64,000 nt of DNA from Alphaproteobacteria bacterium (GTDB taxonomy: Bacteria > Pseudomonadota > Alphaproteobacteria > MPNO01 > UBA830), in assembly GCA_965243135.1 (NCBI GenBank), contig OZ251539.1, positions 2,848,001 to 2,912,000 on the forward strand, in the 5' to 3' direction. Below the pieces are notes generated by a model that did no database searches, was not told the DNA's origin, and worked only from the letters and a program-made list of their open reading frames with translations. Both the position numbers and the translations under genes were made by a program. This document shows, piece after piece, positions 5,271 to 22,552 of this stretch (positions are counted from its first letter, which is position 1; every line of letters begins with the position of its first letter).

Positions 5271-5439
5271 TTCCAAACTCCGGCACTCTGTGCAGCATGT
5301 AACCGGGAACTTGTTGAGTGGGCGCAATCCCCGTATATTCCCCGTGTGGTCAAAGTCCACCAAATTGTTTTTATTGTCAAGTGTGAGATGTCGGGCGTTT
5401 GTGGTGTGCCATTTTTTGTCGGCTTGGCACCCGGCTGGC

Positions 5440-5720
5440 ACCCTACGGATCGCCTTGATCGCCCTTCGGCACGCAGGGTCGCACGGACGACTGGTTCCGA
5501 TCCCTGTCCCCGTCGGGGCGAAGCGGAACCATGACGCCATCGAGCGAGACGGTGCACGAAGCCGCTTCCTCCTGCACCGTTTCCACCTCGGACGTCCCTA
5601 GCCGTCCTTTCCTTCTCGTTCCAGCGCTCGCCGCCCTCGTCGACAGACGCGCAACTGGACGGGCCTCCCGGCTCCGTTCGTCGGCGTGCGGTGGCGCAGG
5701 AGCATCGCTGCGAGCCGCCG
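5440..5720 (-). pseudogene. Probable ISKra4-family transposase fragment
   Basis: Minus-strand peptide VQEEAASCTVSLDGVMVPLR resembles the first catalytic-Asp motif of ISKra4 transposases; stops nearby. Confidence 0.4.
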
Positions 5721-5989
5721 GTTTCTACAGCCTCGGGCTTTCGGCGTCCACGCCAAGGTAAGCGTTCGCTGCCCGGGGGACGAAAAAAATTTGCCCCGGG
5801 GACAGGAAACGATTCGCTGACCCCTGTATATCGCCTTTATGGAGTTGGCGACACCAGATTACGCACCTTCGGTGCTTTTTTGATTCCAACCCTTTGATAT
5901 AGCGCGTTCTTTTCTCGCGAACCGATAGATCGGGAAGGCAGAGGATTCCTCCTGCTTCCCCGGTTGCAACAGCTTCGGGGGAAAGAATC

Positions 5990-7090
5990 ATGGTCCGTCT
6001 CAACCAGCGCAGGGTCGACGCCCTCAAGCCGCGCAAGTCCGCTTACGACGTTCGCGACGACGATCTCAAAGGGTTCGGCGTCCGGGTGCTGCCGTCCGGC
6101 GGAAAACGATACTTCGTCCACAGCCAGCACGAAGGACGGCGCGTCTGGAAGGTCGTCGGTAAAGACATCGCCGAGGAGGAGGCCCGCGCGCGGGCGAAGG
6201 CCGCCCTGGCGGCGATCCGAAACCGGACGTCGGCGATCGTGCCGGAACAGACCCTGTTCGAGGCGGTTGCCGAGGAGACGTTCGAGCGTTACGGGCGGAA
6301 CTGGAAACCGCAGACGTTCGAGGTCAACCGCGGGTACTACAGGAACCATATCCTGCCGTGGTTCGGGGGACGCCAGATCGCCGAGATCGCGCGGCGGGAC
6401 GTCCGGCGCTGGTTCGCTTCGTTGCGCGATACGCCGGCGGCGGCGGATCGCTCGGCGCCGGTCCTGTCGGTGATCATGCGGCAGGCGGAGGTCTACGGCT
6501 ACCGGACGGAAGGCAGCAATCCGTGCACGGGCATCCGGCGCTATCGGCGGCAGGGGCGCGAGCGGTTCCTGACGGCGGCGGAACTCCGCCGCCTCGGAGC
6601 GGTCCTGGCGAGCCGCGAACCCGACTGGCGGGTCGCGGCGGTGCGGCTTCTGCTGCTGACCGGTTGCCGCAAGAGCGAGATCCTGACCCTGCGATGGATC
6701 GGCTACCGCGAAGGCAATCTGTTCCTGGAGGACAGCAAGACGGGGCCGCGAACGGTCTGGCTGTCGTCGGCCGCCCGGCAGGTTCTGGACGGGCTGGAGC
6801 GACGAAGCAGGTGGATCTTTCCATCTCCAGCGAAGGACGGCGCCCTGAGCGCGGAAGCGATCGGGCGTTTCTGGCGGAAAGCGAGGGCGGAAGCCGGACT
6901 GCAGGACGTCCGGCTGCACGATCTGCGCCATACCTACGCCAGCGTGGCGCTTCGGCACGGCGAGACCGTGCTGACCATCGGCCGGTTGCTCGGCCACAAC
7001 GATCCGGGGACGACCCTCAAGTATGCGCATCTTGCCGACGCGGCGGTCCACGAAGCGGTCGAGGCGGTTGGCGCGGTCTTGGAGGGATGA
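5990..7090 (+). CDS. Tyrosine recombinase/integrase with arm-type DNA-binding N-terminus
   Basis: DDDLKGFGVRVLPSG N-terminus; TGCRKSE, DSKTG, HDLRH, LLGH and terminal Tyr (TTLKYAH). Confidence 0.93.
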   Translation: MVRLNQRRVDALKPRKSAYDVRDDDLKGFGVRVLPSGGKRYFVHSQHEGRRVWKVVGKDIAEEEARARAKAALAAIRNRTSAIVPEQTLFEAVAEETFERYGRNWKPQTFEVNRGYYRNHILPWFGGRQIAEIARRDVRRWFASLRDTPAAADRSAPVLSVIMRQAEVYGYRTEGSNPCTGIRRYRRQGRERFLTAAELRRLGAVLASREPDWRVAAVRLLLLTGCRKSEILTLRWIGYREGNLFLEDSKTGPRTVWLSSAARQVLDGLERRSRWIFPSPAKDGALSAEAIGRFWRKARAEAGLQDVRLHDLRHTYASVALRHGETVLTIGRLLGHNDPGTTLKYAHLADAAVHEAVEAVGAVLEG

Positions 7091-7093
7091 GAC

Positions 7094-8188
7094 ATGCGGA
7101 CTCGTCTGACCGACGCCAAGATCGCCGCGCTGCGGCCGCGCGAACGGGAGTACACGGTCTGGGACGAGCGGATCTCCGGGCTCGGGGTTCGCGTGCGTCC
7201 GTCCGGGCATCGCAGCTACGTTTTTCTCCGCAACGGTCGCAGGGCATCGCTCGGCCCGGCAGCGCTCAAGGCGGTCGACGAGGCGCGCCGCGAATGCCTC
7301 GAGGGCGTCGCGCCTGCGGAAACGGCACCGTCGTTCGGGGATTTCGTCGCGAACCAGTGGAAAACCGCCTGCTGCATGCATTTCAAGCCGTCGACGCAAC
7401 GGACGGTGAACTCCATTCTGAACAGCCAGTTGCTGCCGACCTTCGGTTCCACGCCGCTCGACCGGATCACCGCGGCGGAAGTCGGCCGCTGGTTCGACCG
7501 GTACAGCCGGACGGCGCCCGGCGGAGCCAACGGGACGCTGGACATATTACTGCAGATAATGAACCATGCGATCATGCGCGGTCACATCGAAAGGAATCCG
7601 GCGCAAGGCATCAAGCGGAACAGGCGTCCAAGGATCACCCGCTTCCTGTCGCGAGAGGAACTCCGTCGTCTCCATGCGGAACTGGACGTTTGCGGGCGCG
7701 GGACGCGCAAGCAGCAGGCGGACATCATCCGTCTTCTGCTGGCGACCGGCTGCCGGAAGAACGAAATCGTGAAGCTGCAATGGCGCGAAGTGGACGAAAC
7801 CGCGCTCAATCTCGCGGACAGCAAGACGGGACCGCGAAAGGTCTTTCTGAACGCGCAGGCCCGCGCCATCGTCGAGCGCCAGATCCGGACCGGGAGCCCA
7901 TACGTCTTTCCGTCGGCATCGGACCCGCGGCTCCCGCAATCGGACAAGCTTCCGCTCTGGCACGAGGCGAGGAAGCGGGCGGGGATCGAAGATGTCCGCC
8001 TGCACGATCTGCGGCATACCTTCGCCAGCCACGCCGTCATGCAGGGGGTTCCGCTGCCGGTCGTGGCGCGGCTGCTCGGTCATCGGGACGTGCAGATGAC
8101 TTTGCGCTACGCGCATGTCGCCGACAGGGATGTCGAGGCGGCGGCGGAACGGATAGGAAGCACAATCTCAGGTCTTCTGGACGGTTAG
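7094..8188 (+). CDS. Second tyrosine recombinase/integrase, paralogue of the upstream gene
   Basis: WDERISGLGVRVRPSG; TGCRKNE, DSKTG, HDLRH, LLGH, MTLRYAH; starts 3 nt after the first. Confidence 0.93.
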   Translation: MRTRLTDAKIAALRPREREYTVWDERISGLGVRVRPSGHRSYVFLRNGRRASLGPAALKAVDEARRECLEGVAPAETAPSFGDFVANQWKTACCMHFKPSTQRTVNSILNSQLLPTFGSTPLDRITAAEVGRWFDRYSRTAPGGANGTLDILLQIMNHAIMRGHIERNPAQGIKRNRRPRITRFLSREELRRLHAELDVCGRGTRKQQADIIRLLLATGCRKNEIVKLQWREVDETALNLADSKTGPRKVFLNAQARAIVERQIRTGSPYVFPSASDPRLPQSDKLPLWHEARKRAGIEDVRLHDLRHTFASHAVMQGVPLPVVARLLGHRDVQMTLRYAHVADRDVEAAAERIGSTISGLLDG

Positions 8189-8343
8189 CCCCATCTGCAC
8201 ACCAGCGCGATCCAGCCAGATACGGAACCGTCCGTTAAACTTTCGACCGCCGCAAGAGTTCCAATTTGGCCGGACGATCCTGAAACAGGAACTGATAGAT
8301 CGTAAAGAACGATGGATGTTCCTGCCGCAACCATTTCCGAATG

Positions 8344-9558
8344 TCATTCTGTCCTGCAGCCGTTATGCGGATTCCAAATTAATCTTCCTTCCGGTTCCAT
8401 TTTCGAGGGATTTTCCAAAAAGGCCAAGCCATCTCTGTACATGACATATTCGGTACCTCGGAGTTCCGTTGAAGAAAAACCGGCAATTTCGGACTTGGGA
8501 ATATCAGGATGTTCCGTCGGAATTTCTCTCTCTACACCAATTATATGGCTCAAATAATCTAGAAAATTTTGACAAACTTGTTTTGCGATAGCGAAATTCC
8601 CAAAGATTTGGGGAGCAATTTCGTAGTAATATCTTGGAAAAAAGTGATATCTTGGAAAAAAGTGATAGGGATCTGAAAAAATAACAAATTCCTTATCGAC
8701 GTAACGCAAAATTTCAAATTCTAAATCATAATCCTCTGGGCGGTCTATATGGAACAGGATCCACTCAATCCATCTTACGATTTCCGTTGCGCCCAAGAGA
8801 GAGAAATTAGAGCGAAACGTCGCCATAACGGGCGGCATCGGCGGATTTTCGGATTTCGAACCAGCTGAAGACGATCCGGAAGGCTGCGTCACGGGATTGG
8901 ATGTGTCCGCGACGCATAAAAATGAACCCGACCTGTTGGGTCTCGATCCAAATCCGATACTGTAACCGTTTATCACGTTTCCGTACTGGGAATGGACAGC
9001 CAAATTTGGCGTCACCTGCCTTTCGAGTTTTTTTATTGTCCTTCTCCTTATTTCTTTCGATGTAATTTTTTTGGCGAAGGATCCATGCGCTTCCACGATT
9101 ACGATCCCATGCCCGGCAGCGGGACCATCGCCGTAAATGAAATCCGGACGCGGCCTAGAAGTTGAAAATGAGCTCTCTCCGTTGTCGCGCCATGTATATC
9201 CCAGCTGATTCATGACCAGATCGGCGATCCCTGCTCCTACGCTGCCTGCAAAGGACGCCCTTGCCGCATCGGCTAGACCTCCAAAGTCAGGTGAAAGAGT
9301 GAATGAATGCCTGTTTTCGATCAACAATAAGGCTTCAATGAAGGATTTTATGCCCAAAAAAACAAGCATTCCGGGGGACGCCTGCCGCAGTGTTTCGGTT
9401 CTTGCTATCGATGCCGCAAGAGCGATCCGGTTAAAGGTCAGTTTCGCGGGAAGACCCGGAGGACGAAAGCCGGGGGTAACCCGGCTGACGCCGGCATGGC
9501 AGCGGTCAATTGGATTTACCTCAATCGGGGTAGGCAGGCTGGCGACCGGCCTGTTCAT
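8344..9558 (-). CDS. Hypothetical protein with possible PD-(D/E)XK-like nuclease motif
   Basis: ATG 9558 overlaps the stop of the type ISP gene (ATGA); RPDFIYG..IVIVEAHG resembles PD..ExK; AT-richer; 18-bp duplication (YHFFPR x2) at ~8629-8664. Confidence 0.6.
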   Translation of the reverse strand: MNRPVASLPTPIEVNPIDRCHAGVSRVTPGFRPPGLPAKLTFNRIALAASIARTETLRQASPGMLVFLGIKSFIEALLLIENRHSFTLSPDFGGLADAARASFAGSVGAGIADLVMNQLGYTWRDNGESSFSTSRPRPDFIYGDGPAAGHGIVIVEAHGSFAKKITSKEIRRRTIKKLERQVTPNLAVHSQYGNVINGYSIGFGSRPNRSGSFLCVADTSNPVTQPSGSSSAGSKSENPPMPPVMATFRSNFSLLGATEIVRWIEWILFHIDRPEDYDLEFEILRYVDKEFVIFSDPYHFFPRYHFFPRYYYEIAPQIFGNFAIAKQVCQNFLDYLSHIIGVEREIPTEHPDIPKSEIAGFSSTELRGTEYVMYRDGLAFLENPSKMEPEGRLIWNPHNGCRTE

Positions 9559-12500
9559 GATCGGCCTTCCGTAAAGACATCGGGGAGATTTCGGACAGTG
9601 CTGTCGGTTTCGACGCTGACGTGGACGATGCGGCGAATGGCGGCGATCAGGTCGCACGGGTCTTCGAACCAACCATTTGGGTCGTTGACTATGCCGCTCT
9701 TGCTATCCTGTACGATCCTGTATCGGTCGATAAACCATTCCAGCGGCGTTCTTCCGTTGATCTGATATCGGTGAGCGGCATCGGGAATGCCGCTCAGGCG
9801 GACATGATCGTTTATCCGCAGGGTCGTTTTTTCTTCGCCGATGAACCGCATTGCCCGCTCGCCGAAGCGAAAATGTTCCGGTCGAGGCTCTCCGGAACCG
9901 GAAAACTCGACATCGAGCGGGTACTCGTCGCAGTTCTCGTATTGAAGATGAAGATCGGCGAGTCTGCATCCGGCCTCGGCGAAAGCATGGAAATCCGCCG
10001 CGAACGGTATGCGAGGCAATTCCTTGGTCAAGTCGTTCGCGAAACGCTCCCGATAATCCGGATGATGCAGGACTGCGTAGACGTAATCGAATATCGCGTC
10101 TTTCGAGATGGAGTTGTCGCCGTATTTTATGCGAAACACGCGAAGGGCCGTATCGGTGACGTTGTCCGCTCGTTCGAGTTCCGGTTCAAGCCCCGGAAGC
10201 TCGTTCTGCGCGTTTTCCGAGCGCTGATAGCGGTATCGCGGAAAGCACTGACCGAATTCGATCAAATGAAGATCCGGTATCGAATCCACAATCAATGCGG
10301 AAAACGGCTTTGTAGAACCCATACCAGGAAGGCATATGGCCACGTTCCGCTGCGACCTGCCCGGAAAAATCGAGTCGATCTGATATTTCCTTTGAGCGAA
10401 GAAATGATCGGCATATAAATTCATCGCAATAAACGGACGATAAGTTGTCTTGCAGATGTTGTTTTCTTCGAACGTTCTGTATTTTCTTCTTCTCAGATTA
10501 TCCTTTAGCGTTTGATCCCAATGCAGCCTGGAAGAAGATACGACGACGTCGACGATTTGATTTATTTCCAACTTTGAAACACTTTTCTTGTTTTGCAGAG
10601 CTTTCTCGAATTTCTTGAGTGCGTCACAGTAGTCGTCAACCATCCTACGCGCTTTCTCCGTGCAAGCAGAGCGAGAAAAATTGTACACATACGCATCCCT
10701 GCCGGTCTTGTAACCGTTGCTGAACAGTTTGAATATCGCCTCGTCCGTTTTGCCGGCCTTCGCGTCCTTCGAACCTATCGGATAGAGGTTCCCGAACTCC
10801 TCGCTGCGTTGTCCGATCCAGTCGTGATGGCGGTCGGGCGCGATTTCCTTCCAGTCGTCGATGCCCGCGATCGATCCCTTTTCCTGCAGGAAGGTCAGCT
10901 TCTCCTCGCGCGTCAGGTAGTCCCCGACGTCGCGATAGAGGATGCGGCAGCCGTCGCGGTCCGCCTTCGGGTTGCGGACCAGCACCGTGATCGCCACCGG
11001 CGCGCGGGATCCCTGCCCGAATACGTTATCTCCCTCCTTGCGTCGCAGTTCTCCCGAAGTCCTCGCGTTGCCCCGCAGGTTCAGGACGTGGATGGACGTG
11101 AACTCCTCGGCGAGGCAGGCCCGCACGCCGGAATCGACATGGCTGTCGATCCACGAGCCGTTGGTGACGACGGCGACGACGCCCTGCTCGCCGATGCGGT
11201 CGGACGCCCAGCGGATCGCCATCTTGTAGGTGTCGTAGAGGCTGTTCTTGTTCGTCGCCCGCGATCGCGCGGCGTAGGTCTCGGCGACCCGGCGTTCGAG
11301 TTCCGGATAGTCGACGTTCGGATTGTCGTCGGCTGAACTCTTCTGCCATGCCGACCAAGGCGGGTTGCCGACGACGACCTGGATCGGCAGGTTCTGCTGC
11401 CGTTCCACGCGCTCGCTGTTGCCGGGAAGCCATTCCTTCGGAAAACCGGTCCGCTCCGTGTGAAGGTTGAAGGTGTCGGCAAGCGCGATGCCATTGAACG
11501 GTTCGTACCCCCCCCCCCCCCCCCGCCGGCCGTGGAAGGCCTCTTCGATATGGACCGCCGCGATGTAGTAGGCGAGGAGAACGATCTCGTTGGCGTGAAG
11601 TTCCCCGCGGAACTTCCGTTCCAGATCGGCGTCCGCGATCAGCGCGGACTGGAGAAGCCGGACGAGGAAGATGCCGGTGCCGGTGAACGGGTCGAGCACG
11701 TTGACGCCCTCGTCGCTCAGCGAGCGACCGAATTCCTCCCTCGATACATGGTCGGCGCTGCGCAGGATGAAGTTCACCACCTCGACCGGCGTATAGACGA
11801 TGCCGAGCTTGTCCGCCTCCTTCTTCAGCGCCGTCGCGAAGAACTTCTGGTAGAGTTCCATCAGCACATGCTGGCGCGCGTCGCTGTTGTCGAGGCCGCG
11901 AGCGCGCATTCGGACGCTCTCGTAGAAGCTCTCCAGACCCTCCAGTTCGTTTCCCAATCCGAATTCCCCGAAATCCTCCCGCAACGCGTCCAGCGCCTGC
12001 GCCACCGGATTGCTCTTCGCGAATTCGTAATGCTCGAACAGCGCCTCGAAGACCGGCTGCGTCAGGACATGCTGCGCCATCATGTCGACGGCGCCGACGC
12101 GGGTAATCGACTCGTTGATCGACGCCTTGAGTTCGCCGAGAAAGGCGTCGAACCATTCCCGCAGGGTCTCGTTGGCAGAATCGTCCAGAAGGTTTCCGAT
12201 CCGGAGGACCAGACGCGCGAAGATGTCGGCGACGTCCTTCGCCCAGCTTTCCCAGTACCGCCGGTCGCCGCATTTCTCGACGACCCCGGCGAAGATCGCG
12301 CCGGGCGGAACGTCGAGCGGCGGAAAGGGCAGCGTCCGTTCGGAGGGTTCGTCGTTCCCGGCGGATCCGCCGTTTCCGTCCCAGATGACGATTCGCGGGG
12401 TAGGCGTGTTGTTGAGGTCGATCCTGTTGATCTCGGCGTCGAACCGGTCGTCGTGGGAACGCAGGGAGCGCAACACGCCCCAGACGGCGGCGAACCGCTC

Positions 12501-14312
12501 GTTGTCGTCCAGAGCGCGGTCCGGATCGACATCGGGCGGAACGGCGACCGGCAGCACGATGTAGCCGTATTCCTTGCCCTCGGCCTTGCGCATGGCCCGA
12601 CCGACCGCCTGCACGATGTCGACCTGGGAGTTGCGCGGACTCATGAACAGCACCGCGTCGAGCGCCGGCACGTCGATCCCCTCCGACAGGCAGCGCGCGT
12701 TGGTCAGTATTCGGCAGGCGCTCCGATCGCCCTCCTTCAGCCATTCGATCCGCCGCTTGCGGTCGAGCGCGTTGTGCTGTCCGTCGACGTGCTTGGTCTC
12801 GCACCGGAAATCCGCAGGACGCTCGTCCTCGGGCAACAGTTCCATGGCCTGCGCGACGATCGGTCCCCAATGCCGCTCCAGTTTCTGCGAATCCTTGATC
12901 CTGCCGTTGAACGCGATCGCCCGGCCCAGCGGCATAGATTCGTCGGCGTTCTCCGGATTCTGAAGCACCCGCCAGCACCCGACGATCTTCGCCGCGTCGG
13001 TCAGGTTGATCTCGCCGTCGCCCTCGGCCAGATGCGCCCGGAGCGCCGGATCCGCCGCATCCTCCCGCACCACGAGGATCACCACCTTGTAGTCGGACAG
13101 CAGGTTCCGTTCGATCGCCCGCGAAAACGGCAGACGATGGAATTCGGGGCCGAAAGTCTCCTCGTCGTCCATCGAGAACACTTCGACGGCCCGGTTCGCC
13201 GCTTTCGCCTTCGCCCCCTCGGCATAGATGCGCGGCGTCGCGGTCATGTACAGCCGCTTTTCCGCCGCAATCTTCTCCGCGTCGTGGATCAGCACGAACG
13301 GAGACGTCGACTTGTCGGGGATTTCCACGCCGGTCGTCCGGTGGGCTTCGTCGCAGATCGCGAGATCGAACCCGGGAGCGCCCTGCGCCTGCGCCCGCTC
13401 CACCAGAGGCAGCGACTGGTAGGTGCAGAAAACCACCGTCATCGCGTCGTTCCCCGCGCCCCGAAGCGCTTCCAGGATCGCGTCCGGATTCGTGGTGACC
13501 GGAATTTCCAGTTCCTCCATCGAGGCGTCCTCGTTCGTGCGGCCGGCCCGCGTGTCGGAGCAGATCCCGACGTAGCGGTGCGGAATCTCCCGGTGGGTCG
13601 CCCACTCGCGCATCGATTGCTGGAAGAGGGAGATCGACGGAACCAGATAAAGCACCCGCCGGCCGACGCCGGCAACGGCTTCCGCGATGCGCAGCGCCGT
13701 GAAGGTCTTGCCGGTGCCGCAGGCCATGACGAGCTTGCCGCGGCCGCGGTTCCTGAAACCCCCGACCGCGTCGTCGAAAGCCTCCCGCTGATGCGGGCGC
13801 AGGCTGAACGCCTCGCCCCGCCACGAAAGATTCTCGGGTTCCTCGCTGGCCAGATCCGGCCAGTCGAAAGGCCGGCCGGCCAGATCGCCGAAACGCAGGA
13901 CGCCGCAAGACGGCTTCAGGCCCTTGACGATCTTGAGAGCGTTGGGCCCCCAGCCGTCGCCGGTGTCGACGACGATGCGGGCCGTGAAGGGATCGCGCGC
14001 CGACGCGGAAATGAAAGAATCGAGATCGGGCTTCGAAATTCGCGTATCGGAGGCGTAGCACTTGCACTGGATGGCGCAGAAGCCGCCGTCCCGCTCATCG
14101 GCGACGAGATCGATTCCGATGTCTCGTCCGTCGAAGTCCGGCCTGATTTCCGCCCATTCGGACCACAACCAGACATTCGAAAAGCGTTCCGCATAGAGAG
14201 GATCCCTGACGAAGAAGGTCTTCATCAGCCGCTCGAACAGACGGCCCTTCTCCGCCTGCGACTCGGCGATCGCCCGGATGTGGTCCAGCGTTCTCTGAAA
14301 TCCGTCGATCAT
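9555..14312 (-). CDS. Type ISP restriction-modification enzyme (Mrr-like nuclease, SF2 helicase, N6-adenine MTase, TRD; LlaGI/LlaBIII-like)
   Basis: GIDLVA..AIQCKCY nuclease; MACGTGKT, DEAH, MTATP, QAVGRAMR helicase motifs; VYTP, DPFTGTG, GNPPW MTase motifs; GAGG RBS before ATG 14312. Confidence 0.93.
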   Translation of the reverse strand: MIDGFQRTLDHIRAIAESQAEKGRLFERLMKTFFVRDPLYAERFSNVWLWSEWAEIRPDFDGRDIGIDLVADERDGGFCAIQCKCYASDTRISKPDLDSFISASARDPFTARIVVDTGDGWGPNALKIVKGLKPSCGVLRFGDLAGRPFDWPDLASEEPENLSWRGEAFSLRPHQREAFDDAVGGFRNRGRGKLVMACGTGKTFTALRIAEAVAGVGRRVLYLVPSISLFQQSMREWATHREIPHRYVGICSDTRAGRTNEDASMEELEIPVTTNPDAILEALRGAGNDAMTVVFCTYQSLPLVERAQAQGAPGFDLAICDEAHRTTGVEIPDKSTSPFVLIHDAEKIAAEKRLYMTATPRIYAEGAKAKAANRAVEVFSMDDEETFGPEFHRLPFSRAIERNLLSDYKVVILVVREDAADPALRAHLAEGDGEINLTDAAKIVGCWRVLQNPENADESMPLGRAIAFNGRIKDSQKLERHWGPIVAQAMELLPEDERPADFRCETKHVDGQHNALDRKRRIEWLKEGDRSACRILTNARCLSEGIDVPALDAVLFMSPRNSQVDIVQAVGRAMRKAEGKEYGYIVLPVAVPPDVDPDRALDDNERFAAVWGVLRSLRSHDDRFDAEINRIDLNNTPTPRIVIWDGNGGSAGNDEPSERTLPFPPLDVPPGAIFAGVVEKCGDRRYWESWAKDVADIFARLVLRIGNLLDDSANETLREWFDAFLGELKASINESITRVGAVDMMAQHVLTQPVFEALFEHYEFAKSNPVAQALDALREDFGEFGLGNELEGLESFYESVRMRARGLDNSDARQHVLMELYQKFFATALKKEADKLGIVYTPVEVVNFILRSADHVSREEFGRSLSDEGVNVLDPFTGTGIFLVRLLQSALIADADLERKFRGELHANEIVLLAYYIAAVHIEEAFHGRRGGGGGYEPFNGIALADTFNLHTERTGFPKEWLPGNSERVERQQNLPIQVVVGNPPWSAWQKSSADDNPNVDYPELERRVAETYAARSRATNKNSLYDTYKMAIRWASDRIGEQGVVAVVTNGSWIDSHVDSGVRACLAEEFTSIHVLNLRGNARTSGELRRKEGDNVFGQGSRAPVAITVLVRNPKADRDGCRILYRDVGDYLTREEKLTFLQEKGSIAGIDDWKEIAPDRHHDWIGQRSEEFGNLYPIGSKDAKAGKTDEAIFKLFSNGYKTGRDAYVYNFSRSACTEKARRMVDDYCDALKKFEKALQNKKSVSKLEINQIVDVVVSSSRLHWDQTLKDNLRRRKYRTFEENNICKTTYRPFIAMNLYADHFFAQRKYQIDSIFPGRSQRNVAICLPGMGSTKPFSALIVDSIPDLHLIEFGQCFPRYRYQRSENAQNELPGLEPELERADNVTDTALRVFRIKYGDNSISKDAIFDYVYAVLHHPDYRERFANDLTKELPRIPFAADFHAFAEAGCRLADLHLQYENCDEYPLDVEFSGSGEPRPEHFRFGERAMRFIGEEKTTLRINDHVRLSGIPDAAHRYQINGRTPLEWFIDRYRIVQDSKSGIVNDPNGWFEDPCDLIAAIRRIVHVSVETDSTVRNLPDVFTEGRS
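11508..11524. repeat. C17 homopolymer (G17 on the coding strand) inside the type ISP gene
   Basis: Counted directly; currently in frame, encoding RGGGGG. Confidence 0.9.
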
Positions 14313-14459
14313 TTGTTTTCCTCGCGGCAACCGTCTGACTTCCTTTATCCTGACGCTCGTTCGTAAAGTCGAATCCCGATGCCGGGTCTGCCGAAGCGGC
14401 GCCGCGGGCCGGAGGCGGGTTCCCGCGGCAAGCGGGGTGCGGCGGACAGTCCGCGCCGC

Positions 14460-15125
14460 TCAAGGCCAGACGATCTCGCAGCGCGCGTTTTTTCCCGCCC
14501 GGCGCGCCGCGGCGATGCAGTCCCGGAGTTCGGGGCCGTAGCGGTACCAGAGATAATCCCGCCAGCCGTCCGAGGGGTCCGGGAGAACGCCGCGGTCGCG
14601 CTGAAGCAGCGCGCCGGCGTACGCGGCGGCAGCCACGGCCGCAGCGACGGCGAGGGCCAGCGCCAACCGGCGGAGAAAGGAGCGCCAACCGGCGCGGGGC
14701 CGCAGAGATTCCTGAAGGTCCGCCACGTTGTCGGCGAGGCGGCTCTCGCGCGCGGCGCGGTCGCGGATCTCCTTCAGGACCTCCGAAGCGGGCAGCGCGC
14801 GCTCGGCGACGGCGGCGATGCCGGCGGCGAGCCGGCCTTCCGTTTCGGCGAGGAGGAGGCGGAGGTCTCTCCGGTTCAGCGGCGGGTCCGCCGGAGCCGG
14901 CGCAGTCCGGGAGGCCGCCTCGCCCGGCGCCGGATCCGCGCCGGAGACTCCGCCGTGCAGCGCGGGAGGCGCGGCAGGGCTCGAGTCCCGCTTTTCGCCG
15001 CGCGGCGGCGGGGCCGCCCGCTCGCGCCTGCGGAGTTCCTCTTCGATCCTGCGGTCTTCGTCCACCGGCGGAACGTCTCCGTCGTGGTAGGATGGCGGGA
15101 TGGTCGCGACCGTCACCGCCATCAC
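14460..15125 (-). CDS. Hypothetical membrane-anchored protein (true start probably near 15064)
   Basis: Open frame divergent from the relaxase with one hydrophobic helix (LALALAVAAAVAAAAYAGALL). Confidence 0.5.
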   Translation of the reverse strand: MMAVTVATIPPSYHDGDVPPVDEDRRIEEELRRRERAAPPPRGEKRDSSPAAPPALHGGVSGADPAPGEAASRTAPAPADPPLNRRDLRLLLAETEGRLAAGIAAVAERALPASEVLKEIRDRAARESRLADNVADLQESLRPRAGWRSFLRRLALALAVAAAVAAAAYAGALLQRDRGVLPDPSDGWRDYLWYRYGPELRDCIAAARRAGKNARCEIVWP

Positions 15126-18100
15126 GTCGTCGTCCTCGACAGTGCACTATTTCGAGAAGGACGGCTACTACGCGAAGAACGATCCCGAGCACCGGCGCGC
15201 CAGCCGCTGGCGCGGCAGCGGCGCGAAGGAGCTCGGGTTGCGCGGACAGGTCGATCCCCGCAGGTTCGAGCGGATCCTGCAGGGCCACGTTCCCGGAACC
15301 GATCTCCGTCTCGGGCGCGTCCGCGACGGGGAGCACCAGCACCGTCCGGGGGTGGACGTGACGTTTTCGGCGCCGAAGTCGGTGTCGCTCCAGGCGCTGC
15401 TGCACGGCGACGAGGCGGCGATGCGGGCGCACGACGAGGCGGTCGCGGCGACGCTGGAGTTCATCGAGGCGCGGCTGCTGGAGACCAGGGTCTACGACCC
15501 GAAGACCGGGCGGCGGAACCGGACGCGGTCGCGGAGCCTGGTGGCGGCGACGTTCCGCCACGTGGCGAGCCGCAACCTCGACCCGCAGCTGCACACGCAT
15601 TGCGTGATCGCGAACATGACGCGGGGGCCGGACGGGAAGTGGCGGAGCGTCGAGGCGACTTCCCTGCACCGGAACGCCCGGCTGATCGGGACGCATTACC
15701 GCAACGAACTGGCGAAGCGGTTGCGGGACCGCGGCTACGCGCTGGCGCCGGCGATGGTGGGCAAGATTCCGGGATTCGAGATCGCGGGCTACGGGAAGTC
15801 GACGCTGGAGGCGTTTTCGAGTCGTCGGCGCGAGGTTCTGGACTACATCCGGAAGAAGGGATGGACGTACGACGCGGCGCGGGCGCAGGCGGCGACGCTT
15901 GCGACGCGGCGGCGCAAGGCGGAGCCGCGCCGGGAGGAGCTGGAGGCGCTGTGGCGGCAGCGCGCCCGGGATCTTGGAATCGCGACCGGGGGACGGCGGC
16001 AGCGGCCGGGGCGAACGGGAAGCGGGCCGTCGGCGCTGGAGATCGTGAGCCGGGCGGCGGAGCGTCTGGAGGAGCGGAGTTCGGTGCTCGCGGCAAGCGA
16101 GCTGACGGCGCTGGCGCTGGCCCATTCTCCGGGGCGGCACGGGATCGCCGACATCGACGCGGCGATCCGGCAGCTTCAGCGCGACGGCCACCTGATCGCG
16201 GCGAAACGGTCGCGGACGGGGCCGGCGTTCGTCACCGACCGGGCGGCGCGGGCGAAGAAAGAGATCGCCTCCCGAATGAAGAAGGCGCTCGGCGCCGCGG
16301 CGCCGCTGGCTTCGGAACGAGCGGTCGAGGAACGGCTGGCGGGAACCGACCTCTTCGCCGGACAGAAGGACGCGGTTCGAACGATCCTGCTGAGCGCCGA
16401 CCGGGTGGTCGGGGTGGAAGGCTATGCCGGGGCCGGGAAGACGGCGACGCTGCGTTGCGTCCTCGATCTCGCCGGCGATCGCCCGGTTCTCGGCCTCGCG
16501 CCGTCGGCGAGCGCCGCCCGCGCCCTGGCGCGCGAGAGCGGCATCCCGGCCCGGACCTTGCAGTCCTTTCTCTGCCGGCACCGCGACGTCGCCGACAACG
16601 CGGCGAACGCCGAAACCCTGGCCGTCCGGCGCGCGGAGTTCGGCGGCGCGTTGCTGGCGGTCGACGAGATGTCGCAGGCGAGCGCGGCGCAGGCGCGCGA
16701 CCTGATGCGGATCGCCGACCGGCTCGGCGTCGGGCGGCTGGCGCTGATCGGCGACAGGAAGCAGTTGCGGGCGGCGGAGGCCGGCCAGCCCTTCCGGCAG
16801 TTGCAGGCGGCGGGGATGAAGACGACGGACCTGCGGCAGCGCTGCCCGGACCTGAAGGCGGCGGCGCTCGACGCGGGCCGTCCGGCGGCGCCCGGCAGGT
16901 TCGGCGACAACCTTCACGAGGTTCCGGCCGACGAGCTCGGCGGCGCGGCGGCGGCGATCTGGCTGCGGCTGTCGCCGGAGGACCGGGCGGAGACCGCGAT
17001 CCTCGCGCCGACCCGCGAACTGCGGGCGGCGATCAATGACGCGGTGCGCGAGGGGCTGGCGCAGGAAGGCGCGCTGCGCGGGCGGGAACTGGAGATCGAG
17101 ACCCTGGTCGATCTCGGCATGACGCGGGCGCAGAAGGGCGACGTCCGCAACTGGCGGGAAGGCGACGTGGCGGTGTTCGCGTACGACCTCTACCCGTACC
17201 GCATCCGGGCCGGGGAGGCCTGCGCGGTGACCGGGATCGCGGACGGCCGGGTGACGCTGGCCCATCCGGACGGCAGGCCGCGGCGGATCGACCCGTCGGG
17301 CTACCTCCGCTACCGGCTGGACCTGTTCGAGGCGCGCCCGATCCGCATCCGGGCGGGGGACGCGATCCGCTGGACGCGCAACGACGTCCGGCGCGGGCTG
17401 ATCGACGGCGAGCGGGCCGAGACGCTCCGGATCGGCACCCGCGCCCTGCGGCTGCGGATCGCGGGCGGCGGGGAGTTGACGTTGCGGCGCGACGATCCGC
17501 ATCTGCGGCACGTCGCGCACGCCTGGGCATCGCCGGCGGCGCAGGGGATCGGGCGGAACAACGTGATCGCGGCGCTGGATTCGGGGCACGGGCAGCTGAG
17601 CGACCAGCGGACGCTCTACATGGAGATCAACCGGGCGCGGCGAAACGCGGTGGTGCTGACCGACAACCGGGAGGCGCTGATGGAGGCGCTCGAGGCCGGC
17701 GAGCGGCTGGCGGCGGGGGAGGATCTCCGGCCGGCGCCCGGCAAGAAGCTGGCGCCGGTCCGCCGTCCGGGCCCGAGCCGGGCGGAGGTCTACCGCCAAT
17801 GGCGGACGGACCGCGATCGGCACGCCGGGGCGGCGGCGCGGGCCGGGCTGCATCCGATCCATCTTCCCGGCTACGAAGCGCTGCGCGCCCGGCTGGGGGA
17901 TCTCGCGCTGCCGCCGCGCCTTCCGGAAAGTCTCCGTCGGCAGGTCGCGGGCGAAATCGTCCGGCACGACGAGGCGGTCGCGGAGGCGGCGCGCGCGGCG
18001 CGATGTCTGGAAAGCGTCGAGACCGGTCTGGCGCGGCGCGAGGCCGGATTGGCGCCCGCGTCATACGAAGACTGGCGCTTCGAACTGGAGTCGGCCGTCG

Positions 18101-19002
18101 CCGCCGGGCGCGGCGTTCTGGAATTCCTGGAACCGGATCGGCGGGCGCGGATGGAGCGCGGCATCGAGGAAGCGGAAGGCCATCTCGCCCGCGACGACGC
18201 CGCGTTCGCCGAAAGGACCGCGGTCGACCGCTTCAGGGAATGGGAGGAACGCGGCGACATCGGGGAGGCGCGGACGCTCGCCGCCGACCCGGCGTTGCCC
18301 GAGGAGCTCCGGCAGCGCGCGGAACGGGTCGTTCGCGCGCTGGAGGAACCCCGCCGGGAAGCGGGGACGGAGCGCGAAGTGGAACGGAGGGCGCGAACGG
18401 CGCGGCAGGCGCCGGCGCGGCGAGAAGCCGAACGGGCGCGGGCGGCGCTGGACGCGAGCGCCGAGACGGTCTCTCGCGGACGTCGGGCGGTCGCGAACCG
18501 TGCCTTGTCGGAGGCCGAACGCAGGCGGCGCGAAGACGCTTTCGAACGCGCCGGGGAGGCGCTCGACCGGCGCTGGCGCGACCTCCGCAGCGGCTGGAAA
18601 AGTTACCGGGACGAAGTCCGGGCCGAAGGCGGCCATCCCTTCGCCCGCGACGACTGCAAGCCCTGGATCGACGCGGCGCGGGCGCTCGCCGCGGAACCGC
18701 GCCTGCCGGACGGCAGGCGCCGCCTGCTCGCGGACTTTCTTCGCGGCCGCGACGAAGCATGGCCCGCCGACCGCGAGCGTCTGGCGGCCCTGCGGGACGA
18801 CTGGAAAGCGGTGCGCGACGAAGCGCGGCGGCAGCGGGCGTCTCCCTTCGAAATGCCCGAATGCGCGGCGGTGATCGACCGCATGCGGGACATGGAACGG
18901 TCCGACAACCTCGCCGAAAGCGAGAAGCGCGGCCTGCGGGAAATCGTCGGCGACCACGACGAGCATGTCTCCCGGCAGCGCGGGAGATCTTGGGGCGCGT
19001 AG
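15100..19002 (+). CDS. MobF-family (TrwC/TraI-like) relaxase-helicase
   Basis: YFEKDGYY catalytic tyrosines, DVTFSAPKSVS, HVASRNLDPQLHTH HUH motif, FSSRR, helicase Walker A GYAGAGKT, LIGDRKQL. Confidence 0.93.
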   Translation: MVATVTAITSSSSTVHYFEKDGYYAKNDPEHRRASRWRGSGAKELGLRGQVDPRRFERILQGHVPGTDLRLGRVRDGEHQHRPGVDVTFSAPKSVSLQALLHGDEAAMRAHDEAVAATLEFIEARLLETRVYDPKTGRRNRTRSRSLVAATFRHVASRNLDPQLHTHCVIANMTRGPDGKWRSVEATSLHRNARLIGTHYRNELAKRLRDRGYALAPAMVGKIPGFEIAGYGKSTLEAFSSRRREVLDYIRKKGWTYDAARAQAATLATRRRKAEPRREELEALWRQRARDLGIATGGRRQRPGRTGSGPSALEIVSRAAERLEERSSVLAASELTALALAHSPGRHGIADIDAAIRQLQRDGHLIAAKRSRTGPAFVTDRAARAKKEIASRMKKALGAAAPLASERAVEERLAGTDLFAGQKDAVRTILLSADRVVGVEGYAGAGKTATLRCVLDLAGDRPVLGLAPSASAARALARESGIPARTLQSFLCRHRDVADNAANAETLAVRRAEFGGALLAVDEMSQASAAQARDLMRIADRLGVGRLALIGDRKQLRAAEAGQPFRQLQAAGMKTTDLRQRCPDLKAAALDAGRPAAPGRFGDNLHEVPADELGGAAAAIWLRLSPEDRAETAILAPTRELRAAINDAVREGLAQEGALRGRELEIETLVDLGMTRAQKGDVRNWREGDVAVFAYDLYPYRIRAGEACAVTGIADGRVTLAHPDGRPRRIDPSGYLRYRLDLFEARPIRIRAGDAIRWTRNDVRRGLIDGERAETLRIGTRALRLRIAGGGELTLRRDDPHLRHVAHAWASPAAQGIGRNNVIAALDSGHGQLSDQRTLYMEINRARRNAVVLTDNREALMEALEAGERLAAGEDLRPAPGKKLAPVRRPGPSRAEVYRQWRTDRDRHAGAAARAGLHPIHLPGYEALRARLGDLALPPRLPESLRRQVAGEIVRHDEAVAEAARAARCLESVETGLARREAGLAPASYEDWRFELESAVAAGRGVLEFLEPDRRARMERGIEEAEGHLARDDAAFAERTAVDRFREWEERGDIGEARTLAADPALPEELRQRAERVVRALEEPRREAGTEREVERRARTARQAPARREAERARAALDASAETVSRGRRAVANRALSEAERRRREDAFERAGEALDRRWRDLRSGWKSYRDEVRAEGGHPFARDDCKPWIDAARALAAEPRLPDGRRRLLADFLRGRDEAWPADRERLAALRDDWKAVRDEARRQRASPFEMPECAAVIDRMRDMERSDNLAESEKRGLREIVGDHDEHVSRQRGRSWGA

Positions 19003-19032
19003 CGCGCGCCTCTTCCCGTGCGCCGCGAAGAA

Positions 19033-19544
19033 CTATCGCCGGTTCCGTTCGTAGACCGCGGTGCCGATTCGCTCCGCCCTTTCGGCGTCGAACACCTCGT
19101 CGAGCAGCGCCTTCATCTCGGCGTAGCGCCCCCTTCGCGTCATCTCGTCGAGCTTCGTCTCGAACAGGACGCGCACCGCATTGGCCATGTTCGGCGACCC
19201 CGCCGCGTCCTGGAACATCTGTCCCGACATGTCCGCCGCAATGCGCGTCACGGCGTCGCAAAGCGCGCGCTGCTCGTCCGCGCCGAGGACCAATTGCGCG
19301 TCCTTTTCCGGGTCGCGGGGCTCCCGCGTCAGCGCGCGGTCGACGACGTAGCGCGACATCGACTTGCCCTCGGCCGCGGCCCGCTCGCGGATGCGTTCCC
19401 ACTCCGCTGGCGTGCACGAAATCGAGTGGACCGCGACATCGACTTGCCCTCGGCCGCGGCCCGCTCGCGGATGCGTTCCCACTCCGCCGGCGTGCACGAA
19501 ATCGAGTGGACCGCGGCCCGAACCTTGCCCGGCTGCCGGCTCAC
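19033..19544 (-). pseudogene. Ribbon-helix-helix (MobC/NikA-like) protein frameshifted by an 80-bp tandem duplication
   Basis: GTG 19544 overlaps the upstream stop; VHSISCTPAEWERIRERAAAEGKSMSRY; unit repeated at 19352 and 19432; removing 80 bp gives 432 nt, a whole number of codons. Confidence 0.7.
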
Positions 19545-19897
19545 TTCCCGCCTCCGTCGAAGAGTCCGGGAAGGACGTCCCGCACTTCGTTTCGAGGCGG
19601 TGCCGTCCGCATCTTGCGCTCCGCCCGGTACAGGAACTCCACCGCCTCGCGCAGCGTGACCTCGCTCCCGGGAAGCGGCCGGAGAAGATCCTGGGTCGCC
19701 ATTAAAAGGAGGTTGACCCGGTTGTAGAGAGCGCGCTGCTCCTCCTCCGAAAGCGCCAGCCGGTGCGCCGCGCCGTCGTCCAGCGCGCACCCCAGAACGA
19801 ACCGCGAGACGCTCGTTCCCGCCGCCGCCGCCCGCTCCCGGATCGTCTCCCATTCGAGCGGCATGCAACTCACGCTGTACTGCCGGGACCGCGCCAT
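19541..19897 (-). CDS. Ribbon-helix-helix (MobC/NikA-like) protein
   Basis: MARSRQYSVSCMPLEWETIRERAAAAGTSVSRFVL; GAGAGG RBS upstream. Confidence 0.7.
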   Translation of the reverse strand: MARSRQYSVSCMPLEWETIRERAAAAGTSVSRFVLGCALDDGAAHRLALSEEEQRALYNRVNLLLMATQDLLRPLPGSEVTLREAVEFLYRAERKMRTAPPRNEVRDVLPGLFDGGGK

Positions 19898-20220
19898 CTT
19901 TCCTCTCCCGCGATCTCGGCGTCCGCCGCCGCGACGATCCCGTTCCAGTCCTCGACCGCGCCCGCTTCGCCGTAGCGCAACTCCTCGATGCGCGACAGGA
20001 CCAGCACGTCCCGCGCCATCCGGCGCTGCAGCGAAACCGGCAGCGGGCCGTCGTCCCGCGGCGGGTCCAGCAGCCGCTCGACGACGAATCGGGAGATCGT
20101 CTTGCCGGCCGCTTCGGCGCGTTCGGCGATCCGCCGCCACTCGCTGTCGGTGGCCATGACGCAGCGCGCCTTGCGCTTTTGACCGCCGAAATCCCCGGAC
20201 GGTTTTGCTTCCTTGACCAT
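19870..20220 (-). CDS. Ribbon-helix-helix (MobC/NikA-like) protein
   Basis: ARCVMATDSEWRRIAERAEAAGKTISRFVVERLL, same pattern as the two downstream genes. Confidence 0.7.
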   Translation of the reverse strand: MVKEAKPSGDFGGQKRKARCVMATDSEWRRIAERAEAAGKTISRFVVERLLDPPRDDGPLPVSLQRRMARDVLVLSRIEELRYGEAGAVEDWNGIVAAADAEIAGEERWRGPGSTA

Positions 20221-20488
20221 ATGGTTTCATTTGCCTCTACAATGGTTACGCCCTGAAAAGAAAAAAGGATTGCTTGCTTTTCCGGGCGCCTGATTGTAGA
20301 TAGCGGAATCGTCCCAGGATGTCACGGACGGCCCGGCCGGGAGTCGTCTTGTAGATTCCCCGCCTGTCGGAAAGTCTCTTGACATGCGCCGTAAAGGAAT
20401 GTATATACAGCATATTCGCGAGGAAGGGAACCGCTGCCGGCAGGCTTATATATCGACAGGGCGAAGGATGGGTTGTCCACACCAGATT

Positions 20489-21160
20489 TTTGATGCGACC
20501 GACCGACAGTGGGTCTTGCTGCTGGCAATGACCCTCGGGCAGCGGGACGAGGCGATTCGGCAGCGGGACGAGGCGCGCCAGGAAGCGGAGGCGTCGCGCT
20601 GGAAGGAGGTAAGCGCTCGTCAGCAGGCGACGTTCTGGAAAACGCAGCACCGCCGGGCGCGGGCGCGTGCAGAGGCGGCGCGCAACGAGCTGAAACGCCT
20701 GAAGTCCGTCTCTTCGGTGAACGAGCTCAAGCGGGAAGCGGGCCGCCTTCGGCACGAGCTTGAGAGCAACACATTCTTCGACGACGCGAGGCGGCAACTC
20801 GACGACCTGCGAGGCGCCGCAGTGCAAGCCGTTGCAGTCCTTGCTGCGTCAAGGCTTGGAGGTCTTCGTCGACAGCCGTGCCGATGGACAACAACCTTGC
20901 CGAGCGCGCCCTGCGCGGCGCGGCTGTTGGGCGCAAGCTCTCGTTCGGCTCGTTCAGCGAGGCGGGCGCGCAACTGACCGGGCTGCTCTTCTCCGTGTAC
21001 GCTTGAACTGGCCGGCCTCTCGCCGCACCACTGGCTCCGCGATTATCTGCAAGCCTGCGCCGAACATGGCGGACGAGCGCCCGAAGAGGCGCATGCCTGG
21101 CTTCCCTGGGGCGCCGACCCGAAGCGCGTCCGCACCTGGCGCGCCGCGGCTCCGCAGGGG
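20489..21160 (+). pseudogene. IS66 transposase TnpC remnant with large internal deletion
   Basis: N-terminal coiled coil joined to C-terminal GLEVFVD..PMDNNLAERALRGAAVGRKLSFGS; frameshifted. Confidence 0.8.
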
Positions 21161-21960
21161 CCATGAGCTCTGCGGGCGGGCCGAGGACGAACTCAACCTG
21201 ATTCGCGACCGCGCAATGGAACCCGCCTCTCAAACGCACGCCCCTTTCACGCGTGCGAGCGTCTCGACTGGCGCAAACCCAACGGCGGCGTCAAAGACAT
21301 GAGCGCCCGCGTCGCCCTGTTGCGGATGGAACGCGACGGCCTCTGCCGCCGTCGCAGGTCCGCCCGCGTTCGCCGCTCCGCCGTCTCCCGAAACCGAACC
21401 GCCCCCGTTCCCAACTCCCGACCGTCTCGACCAGGTCCGTCCGCTGCGCACCGAACCCGTCCGCAACGCCAGCGAGGGCCGTCTCTGGAACGCCTTCCCG
21501 CTACCTCGGCTTTACGCCCATGCCCGGCGCACAGCACTTCGTCCGCTCCGCAGAGGGCGAACCGCTGGCCGCGCTCGGCTTCGGCGCCGCCGCGTGGAAG
21601 ATTGCGCCACGGGACAAGCTGATCGGTTGGGACCTCGAATGCCGCGGCCGCAATCTGCCCTTCGTCGTCAACAACGCAAGGTTCCTCCCCTGGGTCAGAA
21701 TCAAACGCCTTGCATCCCATGTCCTCGCACAGGTCGAGCAACGTTTGCCCGACGACTGGGACCGCCGCTACGCTCTGCGTCCCGTACTGCTCGAGACCTT
21801 CTGCGAAACGCAGCGATGGAACCTGCTACCGTGCGGCCAACTGGATCCGGGTCGGCAAAACGCAGGGCCGCGGCAAACTCGACGTGAAAAACGAGTATGC
21901 GCTGCCGGTCAAGGATGTTGAAGCCCCTGCGGCGGGACTGGAAAAAGATCCTCAATCGCA
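21160..21960 (+). pseudogene. DUF4338 (DruA-like domain) protein, eroded
   Basis: KDMSARVALLRMERDG, YLGFTPMPGAQ, LGFGAAAWKIAPRDKLIGW, VVNNARFL, LASHVL, PVLLETF, GTCYRAANWIRVGKTQGRG. Confidence 0.8.
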
Positions 21961-21989
21961 GACCATCACCCGGGTAGCGAACACTTACG

Positions 21990-22375
21990 CCGAAGGTGCG
22001 CCCACAGGTGTGGAACACGATGCTGGAGGAGGAGCATCCGTGTGGTGCGGTGCCGGTCCGTTGGTCGGTTGTCAGTTACGGAACCTGGTGGGGTCGGCGC
22101 ATGGCTGGCTGAGGGCTGTCGGGTTCGCGGCCTCTGCGCACAAGCTCGAGTGCCGCGCCCTTCGGCTGGGACGACGCGGGAAGGTGCGCAGAGAACTCGT
22201 GTGGCAGCGTCTGGAGGTCGAACGTTCCTCGGTGCGCAACGGCGCCCGAGATCGGAAGGCCCGCGACGCACGGGTCGCTCTGCGCTGGTGTACGGTGGAC
22301 CTGCCGGTACAGGTGCGGAAAGAGGAACCGGCTTCCCTTTCCGCACTAGCGCAGGTCTCCCACGCTGCAAGAACG
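21990..22375 (+). pseudogene. Fragment of DUF4338-fused IS4-family transposase
   Basis: WNTMLEEEH..GAGPLVGCQLRNLVGSAHGWLRAVGFAASAHKLECR matches 54620-54780. Confidence 0.6.
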
Positions 22376-22552
22376 AAGTGCACCACCTGATCGCGCCGCC
22401 GCCGATTGAGGAACTTCTCGTCCGCGCAGTGCGCCTGAAAAAAGCGCTTGCCCAAGTCTAGCCCGACCATGCTAATATCTTCCATGGATGCTCCCCTCGT
22501 CTGTGGTTCATGGCGTGCCGCAAGAGGTGGGGGGGGGGGGGGTCCATCCTAC
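22376..22552 (-). mobile_element. IS110/IS1111-family left end and transposase N-terminal fragment
   Basis: MEDISMVGLDLGKRFFQAH from 22485; short upstream non-coding end (ATGGACCCCC..GAGGGGAGCATCCATG on minus) containing a G14 run at 22529-22542. Confidence 0.65.

Follow-up and report, generated by a model that had tools for sequence, protein, structure and literature searches.

The locus examined here raised the question of what kind of DNA separates the two parts of an IS66-family insertion sequence (IS), and how that DNA came to lie between them. The locus is part of a 64,000-nt stretch of contig OZ251539.1 (the window; coordinates refer to it unless given as genome positions), which belongs to a 6.1-Mb, 65% GC genome consisting of a single contig (G000). 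The original prediction described a discrete integrative mobilizable element (IME) with tyrosine integrases, bounded by direct repeats and lodged inside the left end of the IS66 copy. Indeed, integrases, a relaxase and a direct repeat were all found at the locus. The 14,628-bp insert (5861-20488) is very probably an IME that carries two adjacent integrase genes, int1 and int2, and belongs to a family that targets the motif ACACC and behaves like a tyrosine-recombinase transposon of low specificity.

Boundaries of the insert and its 10-bp repeat

IS66-family elements typically have terminal inverted repeats beginning GTAAGCG and generate an 8-bp target duplication. The IS66-family left end in the window (5758-5860, + strand) begins GTAAGCG at 5758 (terminal inverted repeat GTAAGCGTTCGC...) and contains the ATG at 5839 that opens the first seven codons of the IS ORF1 (MELATPD); the same IS stops with ...CACTTAC at 21988 (right end GCGAACACTTAC). 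BLAST of the 69-nt left end returned five further copies in the genome, 92-97% identical, and the right part matched four colinear copies. Four of the five close copies (genome positions 637557, 5920660, 2840380 and 3572839) were colinear with the window through 5860, and the fifth (genome position 2511198) was truncated. The order in the intact copies was ...GCTGACCCCTG(TATAT)CGCCTT(T/C)ATGGAGTTGGCGACACCAGATT, followed directly by TTTGCTTCGAAGCGACCGACCGACAG (TTTGCTTCGAAGCGACC), and these copies crossed the TATATCG position without interruption to ...GGCGACACCAGATT|TTTGC. The window departed from them at 5861 (ACGCACCTTCGG...) and rejoined them at 20489, and this alignment placed the breakpoints at 5860/5861 and 20488/20489. 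A diverged IS66 relative at 39589, to which the original prediction had pointed, confirmed that the two IS parts are adjacent elsewhere. The predicted separation of the IS parts by 14.6 kb held in that ~14.6 kb of foreign DNA intervenes, but the left part of the IS runs to 5860 rather than 5826.

The 10-bp sequence ACACCAGATT was present on the + strand at 5851-5860, where it is native IS66 sequence and covers codons 5-8 of ORF1, and again at 20479-20488, where it forms the final bases of the insert. These were its only two exact matches in the window (expected number 0.02), and two matches occurred in none of 100 shuffled sequences. Since the start of ORF1 in an intact IS66 copy (MELATPDFSFEATDRQW) covers the repeat, the insertion point lies within codons 5-8 of the transposase-side ORF1 and not in non-coding end sequence.

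A tRNA- or tmRNA-targeting island of the P4 type was rejected as an identity for the insert, the target being an IS ORF and an Rfam scan of 5000-23000 having detected no RNA family. Logan contigs from three sequencing runs (X1, X6 and X9) joined 5860 to 20495 through TTTGCTTCGAA, TTAGCTTCGAA or TAGCTTCGAA. These joints represent uninterrupted paralogous IS copies and not excision at this locus, because their letters match variants of the other IS copies. A Logan contig that spanned the left junction had only 30 letters on the IS side, too few to count as a bridge. The runs that best matched the insert may derive from the source sample.

A solo IS66 left end at genome 2511198-2511266 was cut after GGCGACAC, within ACACC, and continued into another repeat family of ~300 bp. 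This cut was considered as an element junction and treated as coincidence, the adjoining DNA being the other repeat family and not an element arm.

The int1-int2 family and its target motif

Two further insertions could be compared with empty sites of their own. A related locus (L007) is flanked on the left by a repeat that encodes an IS5/DDE_Tnp_1-type transposase and gave 30 matches in the genome of L007, and 11 of 12 fetched copies of this repeat read ..CCACACCGCGCCGGTCTTCG..., that is, ...CTTCTTCCACACCGCGCCGGTCTTCGCG. The left junction of the L007 element was ...ACACCGCGCC|CGCACCGG and the right junction ...TTTTACACCGCGCC|GGTCTTCGCG, so that ACACCGCGCC stood at both ends. A second element in G000 (genome 5925887 to 5917227, minus strand) carried ACACCAGGCG at both ends and split a 2.38-kb IS4-like repeat, which encodes a DruA-like domain, Tnp_DNA_bind and DDE_Tnp_1; three 99.8%-identical copies of this repeat were uninterrupted. 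The direct repeat was thus exactly 10 bp, ACACC plus five bases (N5), in all three cases with verified empty sites. N5 differed among sister copies (for example AGCGA, CGAGA and GGTGA), yet within a copy both ends carried matching N5: exactly so in the three verified cases, with 0-1 mismatch in L029 and L031, and with more mismatches in L039.

Relatives of Int2 were collected in a scan with one genome per species, which yielded 141 in genome contigs; 78 loci were kept, with Int2 identities of 55-63%, and 10 kb was fetched per locus, which limits the search for right ends. Nearly all of the genomes concerned were labelled Alphaproteobacteria, Defluviicoccus or Rhodospirillales, and up to 10 of the kept loci came from one isolate, with six on one chromosome. 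int1 lay directly upstream of int2 in 75 of the 78 loci. A hairpin, GCACC-N3-6-GGTGC, was found ~125 bp before int1 in 72 of these 75, always preceded by C, and ACACC stood 6-8 nt outside the hairpin in 69 of the 72. Among 63 distinct flanks to the left of ACACC no position exceeded 0.25 bit, and the only pattern was a three-base periodicity, which arises because most flanks are coding DNA. From -20 to -1 of these flanks G/C was enriched at every third base, and ACACC was usually in frame as NAC-ACC, a pattern that probably reflects the codon usage of high-GC genomes. ACACC was the only target feature common to the 69 loci, and the family is therefore not an IS66 specialist, contrary to what had been supposed from this locus.

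A right end, defined by ACACC and a recurrence of the six bases that follow it at the left end (one mismatch allowed), could be proposed within 10 kb for eight of the 69 loci, and in six of the eight ACACC was preceded by a T-rich run or a comparable context. Inner inverted repeats lay at matching offsets, 40-80 bp inside both ends, in the window element and in L029, L007, L002 and L047. The sister copies L029 and L031 were 99.8% identical over 7.2 kb and beyond, with different flanks and different N5, and this difference in the flanks of near-identical copies proves that the family is mobile. When the flanks of eight relatives were joined in silico and tested for reading frames, long open frames were too common at this GC content to be telling.

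DNA similarity between divergent members stopped after int2, and no conserved third gene was present. A TrwC homologue lay downstream of int2 in the same orientation in at least four other members (L002, L023, L068 and L075), and L002, L006 and L068 had NikA-like matches close to their right ends. A (GCGAGGC)n array at ~15880-16100 comprised 6, 13, 21 and 25 copies in L028, L029, L031 and L039, respectively, and is a fast-changing heptamer repeat within the cargo of sister elements. Two further tandem integrase pairs in G000 (genome 4037400-4039625 and 3016406-3018587) were 62-70% identical to int2; the pair at 4.04 Mb had a different left arm with no hairpin. More distant tandem pairs (~40% identity), annotated only as site-specific integrases, were located on plasmids of Shewanella, Vibrio and Photobacterium. 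The pair on the Shewanella oneidensis megaplasmid (~41% identity) had ACACC upstream and no clear hairpin.

The genes interrupted by family members were surveyed by scanning the two best left-flank frames of each of the 69 loci against Pfam at E <= 1e-5. Matches to mobile-element domains were DDE_Tnp_1 (four loci), Zn_ribbon_IS1595 (three), Transposase_mut, RVT_1 and Mu-transpos_C_2 (two each), and Y2_Tnp and DruA (one each), with HTH_Tnp_1 at 2e-5 in three more left flanks. The rest, among the 25 listed of 60 matched families, were ordinary enzymes and transporters, including a dioxygenase, a short-chain dehydrogenase, MFS, DctM and ketoacyl synthase. The original prediction had proposed to look for IS66 ends beside homologous integrase pairs, and only one other locus, L047, was found beside an IS66-like element.

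Gene content of the insert and surrounding mobile DNA

The left arm of the insert (5861-5989, + strand) contains the hairpin GCACC-TTC-GGTGC (5863-5875). Further in, at ~5901-5921, is an inner inverted repeat, which pairs with its right-arm partner at 20415-20435 (+ strand). The left arms of two in-genome relatives were 75% identical to that of the insert. int1 (5990-7090, + strand) encodes a tyrosine integrase of 366 aa (Pfam Phage_integrase 7e-20, Arm-DNA-bind_3 and Phage_int_SAM_3) with an N-terminal arm-DNA-binding domain. int2 (7094-8188, + strand) starts 3 bp after int1 and encodes a tyrosine integrase of 364 aa (Pfam Phage_integrase 9e-27) that is ~37% identical to Int1. Both proteins keep the R, K, HxxR, H and Y motifs.

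The genes that follow were annotated with Pfam, NCBIfam, PADLOC and codon-position GC. A hypothetical ORF listed at 442 aa (8344-9672, - strand), with an uncertain start that overlaps the next gene, lies in a 49%-GC stretch; it had no Pfam, NCBIfam or PADLOC match and resembled hypothetical-protein clusters whose members are of about the same length (score 0.96). The adjoining gene (9555-14330, - strand) encodes a Type ISP restriction-modification enzyme of 1591 aa (Pfam Type_ISP_C 8e-94, ISP_coupler 2e-39, Mrr_cat_2, ResIII and N6_Mtase), a single polypeptide with Mrr-like nuclease, helicase, coupler, N6 methylase and specificity domains. It matched PADLOC REase_MTase over its full length, with codon-position GC of 0.63/0.43/0.78. 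An ORF at 11460-14366 (+ strand, 968 aa) was rejected as a gene, being a shadow ORF opposite the Type ISP gene. A second copy of the Type ISP gene, 87% identical, together with ~1.9 kb beside it, is present in the genome (window 9606-14366 versus genome 738318-743025).

Downstream, a MobF/TrwC relaxase-helicase of 1300 aa is encoded at 15100-19002 (+ strand; Pfam TrwC 1e-81 and AAA_30; NCBIfam MobF 280 bits versus a cut-off of 100). It is followed by two or three NikA-like ribbon-helix-helix ORFs (19033-20220, - strand; Pfam NikA-like 2e-8, 4e-7 and 6e-5), which span 19033-19497, ~19541-19900 inside an ORF of 19541-20230, and 19870-20220. By their domain matches, they probably encode accessory proteins of the relaxase. 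Within a NikA-like ORF, 84 bp are duplicated in tandem at 19352-19515 (99% identity). Among the insert ORFs scanned no coupling-protein or type IV secretion gene was matched, the 442-aa ORF having received no assignment of any kind. The element was classed as an IME because it combines its own integrases and flanking direct repeats that match an empty site with relaxase and NikA-like genes, and with no coupling-protein or secretion gene.

The interrupted IS was itself unusual. An intact copy (genome 637557-640299; L079) had terminal inverted repeats of 20 bp (GTAAGCGTTCGCTACCCGGG) and lay between two copies of an 8-bp target duplication (ATCAGGCT). Its ORF at L079 1118-2005 matched PF03050 DDE_Tnp_IS66 (1.9e-38) and the next ORF was DruA-like (PF14236); among the four ORFs of L079 scanned there was no TnpB-type match beside these two. 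The canonical IS66 layout has three genes, with tnpA and tnpB as accessory genes. By its gene content, the host IS is a non-canonical member of the IS66 family that lacks this layout. The remainder of the window copy (20489-21988, + strand) keeps the DruA-like ORF (21253-21921) and the right inverted repeat and has lost ~1 kb internally, including the DDE_Tnp_IS66 part. It lacks the 8-bp target duplication, with ACGCCAAG at the left and GCCGAAGG at the right. The DruA-like (PF14236/DUF4338) domain recurred inside insertion sequences (L079 2002-2889, L097 250-1374, window 21253-21921 and L047 7740-8675), either as a separate ORF after an IS66-type transposase or at the N-terminal end of the ORF for an IS4-like transposase.

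Immediately beyond the IS66 right end, at 21989-22011 (- strand), lies what is left of an older family member, namely its left junction, ACACCTGTGG|GCGCACCTTCGG (...GTGTTCCACACCTGTGG|GCGCACCTTCGG). The IS66 right end truncates the hairpin of this junction, which sits in a copy of the 2.38-kb IS4-like repeat. DNA to the left of the IS66 copy (5501-5722) is homologous to DNA after int2 in the sister element at 5.92 Mb. This arrangement shows that the IS66 copy landed in the older element and that a deletion removed the older element's integrases, events that also explain why the IS66 copy has no target duplication. A right end of the older element was sought as a second ACACCTGTGG, which was absent from the window and from 48 kb of genome upstream.

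The GCACC..GGTGC hairpins of two family elements were hit by two different IS families. The first is the IS66 in the window; the second insertion lies at genome 3016281-3016283 and involves an IS of 1.48 kb or more, of which 12 or more copies share at least 94% identity. These IS insertions inside left-end hairpins could reflect chance or hairpin targeting. A 1059-aa ORF at 2361-5540 (- strand; 41-53% GC), with weak glycosyltransferase and sulfotransferase matches and a coiled coil, may have been part of the cargo of the older element, now decapitated. GC content across the window varied as a mosaic between 41 and 77%, and G000 is unusually IS-laden.

Proposed mechanism, alternatives and related elements

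In the proposed model, site-specific recombination placed the element in codons 5-8 of IS66 ORF1, leaving ACACCAGATT at both ends. Int1 and Int2 are predicted to act together on the joined ends, and the joint of the excised circle would consist of the right arm, ACACC-N5 and the arm with the CGCACC hairpin, the inner inverted repeats lying 40-75 bp in from each end. Such a joint would recombine with any DNA offering ACACC, the crossover falling at some point within the 10-bp repeat. The relaxase and NikA-like proteins could let the excised circle transfer via the mating apparatus of another element. The Type ISP restriction-modification gene is cargo. The insert belongs to a large multi-copy family of Alphaproteobacteria-type genomes, which behaves neither as a tRNA-type nor as an IS66-specific island.

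Several observations weigh against this model. ACACC was replaced by ACACT or AGACC in three of the 72 loci with hairpins, the right ends of L018 and L025 look weak among the eight proposed, and the uninterrupted IS4-like copies have ATACC, not ACACC, at the site used by the second G000 element. Recombination across identical overlaps would hold N5 constant, and coupling of the Tn916 type would make the two ends differ; the observed behaviour of N5 is predicted by neither. The constant pairing of int1 and int2 is the one observation that points to a need for both integrases. No oriT was identified, no oriT model having been applied, and the Logan contigs contained neither a circle junction nor an empty site of this locus, although assembled contigs drop rare forms.

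The original prediction placed the crossover at TATATCG and took the element to be specialised on, and parasitic upon, IS66 left ends. TATATCG does occur at both junctions (5827-5833 and 20451-20457), 17 and 21 nt before ACACCAGATT, and an IS66-type right end directly adjoins L047. The shared 7-mer is within what chance would give, however, and the likeness of the element right arm to the IS target was not above chance, the 40 nt to the left of each ACACCAGATT giving a similarity score of 7 against a shuffled null of 5.6 +/- 1.1 (P ~0.17). Joining at TATATCG would delete 27 nt (5834-5860) that every one of the four intact copies keeps between TATATCG and the continuation of the IS, and TATAT is absent from three of the five close copies. 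The reconstructed empty-site dyad, CCCTGT-ATATCG-ACAGGG, appeared in no intact copy, an outcome that the original prediction had itself named as refuting, so that the crossover at TATATCG is refuted, and the circle dyad, AGGC-TTATATATC-GCCT, was contradicted by the same copies. With 63 distinct flanks sharing ACACC and nothing else, a TATATCG core with IS66 specialism is very improbable. Still harder to credit is a reading with no discrete element, in which rearrangement or homologous recombination trapped 14.6 kb of chromosomal DNA between two partial IS66 copies. The absent 8-bp duplication and the 1-kb internal deletion of the IS, which marks the locus as rearranged, would suit it, but the former is explained by the landing of the IS in an older element, the IS parts abut to the base once the insert and one repeat are removed, and the ends of the insert have the family hairpin, the inner inverted repeats and the ACACC-N5 repeat.

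A true mechanistic preference for mobile elements (insertion sequences and group II introns), beyond ACACC, deserves more weight and is nevertheless distinctly unlikely. In its favour, all three resolvable insertions in G000 lie in IS copies (one IS66-type and two of one IS4-like repeat), three loci in the genome of L007 (L006, L007 and L022) occupy the same site of one IS5-type repeat, and ~18 of 69 left flanks encode a transposase, Mu-type transposase or intron reverse transcriptase domain. On the other hand, repeated DNA makes up 15-20% of G000 (20% of the genome has at least one other copy of at least 300 bp and 80% identity, and 10% has four or more), there is no sequence conservation around ACACC, most other Pfam-matched flanks are ordinary metabolic or transport genes, and all four intact IS66 copies hold ACACCAGATT and are unoccupied. 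Insertions that fall in redundant IS copies carry no cost for the host and, being neutral, persist, and in our reading such harmless survivors explain the pattern as well as a preference would. That the insert is an immobile fossil, correct in architecture and no longer able to excise or transfer, is the most serious of the alternatives, though we consider it unlikely. The insert is a single copy in G000, the neighbourhood is full of broken elements, and no excision product was seen in Logan contigs, an absence that is uninformative since rare circles are invisible there; against this, the 10-bp repeats are perfect and the reading frames of both integrases, the relaxase and the restriction-modification enzyme are unbroken over their full length.

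The int1-int2 elements share features with several known systems. XerC and XerD, housekeeping enzymes at dif, are paralogous tyrosine recombinases; they work in a heterotetramer in which each acts on one half-site. By analogy, they offer a model for why two integrases might be needed, but Int1 and Int2 score far below the NCBIfam Xer cut-offs (55-95 bits versus 220-335). Elements of the Tn916 and CTnDOT/NBU type use a tyrosine recombinase, with one integrase and Xis, for transposon-like spread to many sites of short consensus, and their two end sequences (coupling sequences) differ, being of different origin. The present family is similar in its spread to many short-consensus sites, whereas it has two integrases and the same 10 bp at both ends (three of three verified cases). 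IMEs with a MOBF/TrwC relaxase likewise have a terminal integrase module, relaxase and ribbon-helix-helix genes, no mating apparatus, direct repeats and defence cargo. They differ in having Int (with or without Xis) where the present element has two adjacent divergent integrases, and in using a tRNA or a single gene where the present family uses a 5-bp motif at hundreds of places, with up to 10 fetched loci per isolate.

Multi-recombinase elements described in PMC10214605 comprise SEs (IntA-Tfp-IntB-Srap), GInts (GinA-D), RITs (RitA-C) and Tn554 (TnpA-TnpB-TnpC). According to that source, they require three or four core genes, among them one large recombinase and a non-catalytic fold protein, small auxiliary protein or third recombinase; SEs and Tn554 leave a 6-bp footprint, their ends carrying different hexamers from different sources; and SEs and GInts are non-mobilizable, SE insertion into IS genes having been reported. 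The present family resembles them, on this description, in having more than one tyrosine recombinase in a left-end operon, imperfect terminal inverted repeats and transposon-like behaviour. It differs from them, as so described, in having int1 and int2 as its only conserved genes, each of ~365 aa and separated by 3 bp, with a relaxase in a subset, and it differs from SEs and Tn554 in its exact 10-bp repeats (three of three empty-site cases) in place of a 6-bp footprint. The bipartite module (BIM) elements of Cupriavidus also have a two-gene recombinase module of unproven mobility, but as outlined in PMC3414803 they pair one tyrosine recombinase with an unrelated conserved protein, and on that account BIM identity was rejected for a module of two recombinases. 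The word 'tandem' was absent from the main text of the tyrosine-recombinase classification paper PMC8138268, and a full-text literature search, which did not cover supplementary tables, returned no description of a two-integrase, ACACC-targeting family.

These data illustrate that a reconstruction of att sites from a single locus, though plausible, can mislead, and that paralogous empty sites decide the matter. Ends that agree within a copy while sister copies differ also present a concrete puzzle of strand exchange. If the proposed model is true, a type with two integrases and near-random targets would join the short list of tyrosine-recombinase transposons, abundant in Alphaproteobacteria-type metagenome genomes and carrying restriction-modification and mobilization genes. 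We suggest, tentatively, that int1-int2 may constitute an undescribed class of tyrosine-recombinase transposon, one that requires only ACACC, acquires five more target bases at both ends in a way that neither the identical-overlap nor the coupling-sequence rule predicts, multiplies in IS-rich, symbiont-type genomes (6-10 fetched loci in single assemblies), serves as a chassis for relaxases or defence genes, and undergoes mutual nesting with insertion sequences, inserting into them and receiving them in its end hairpin.

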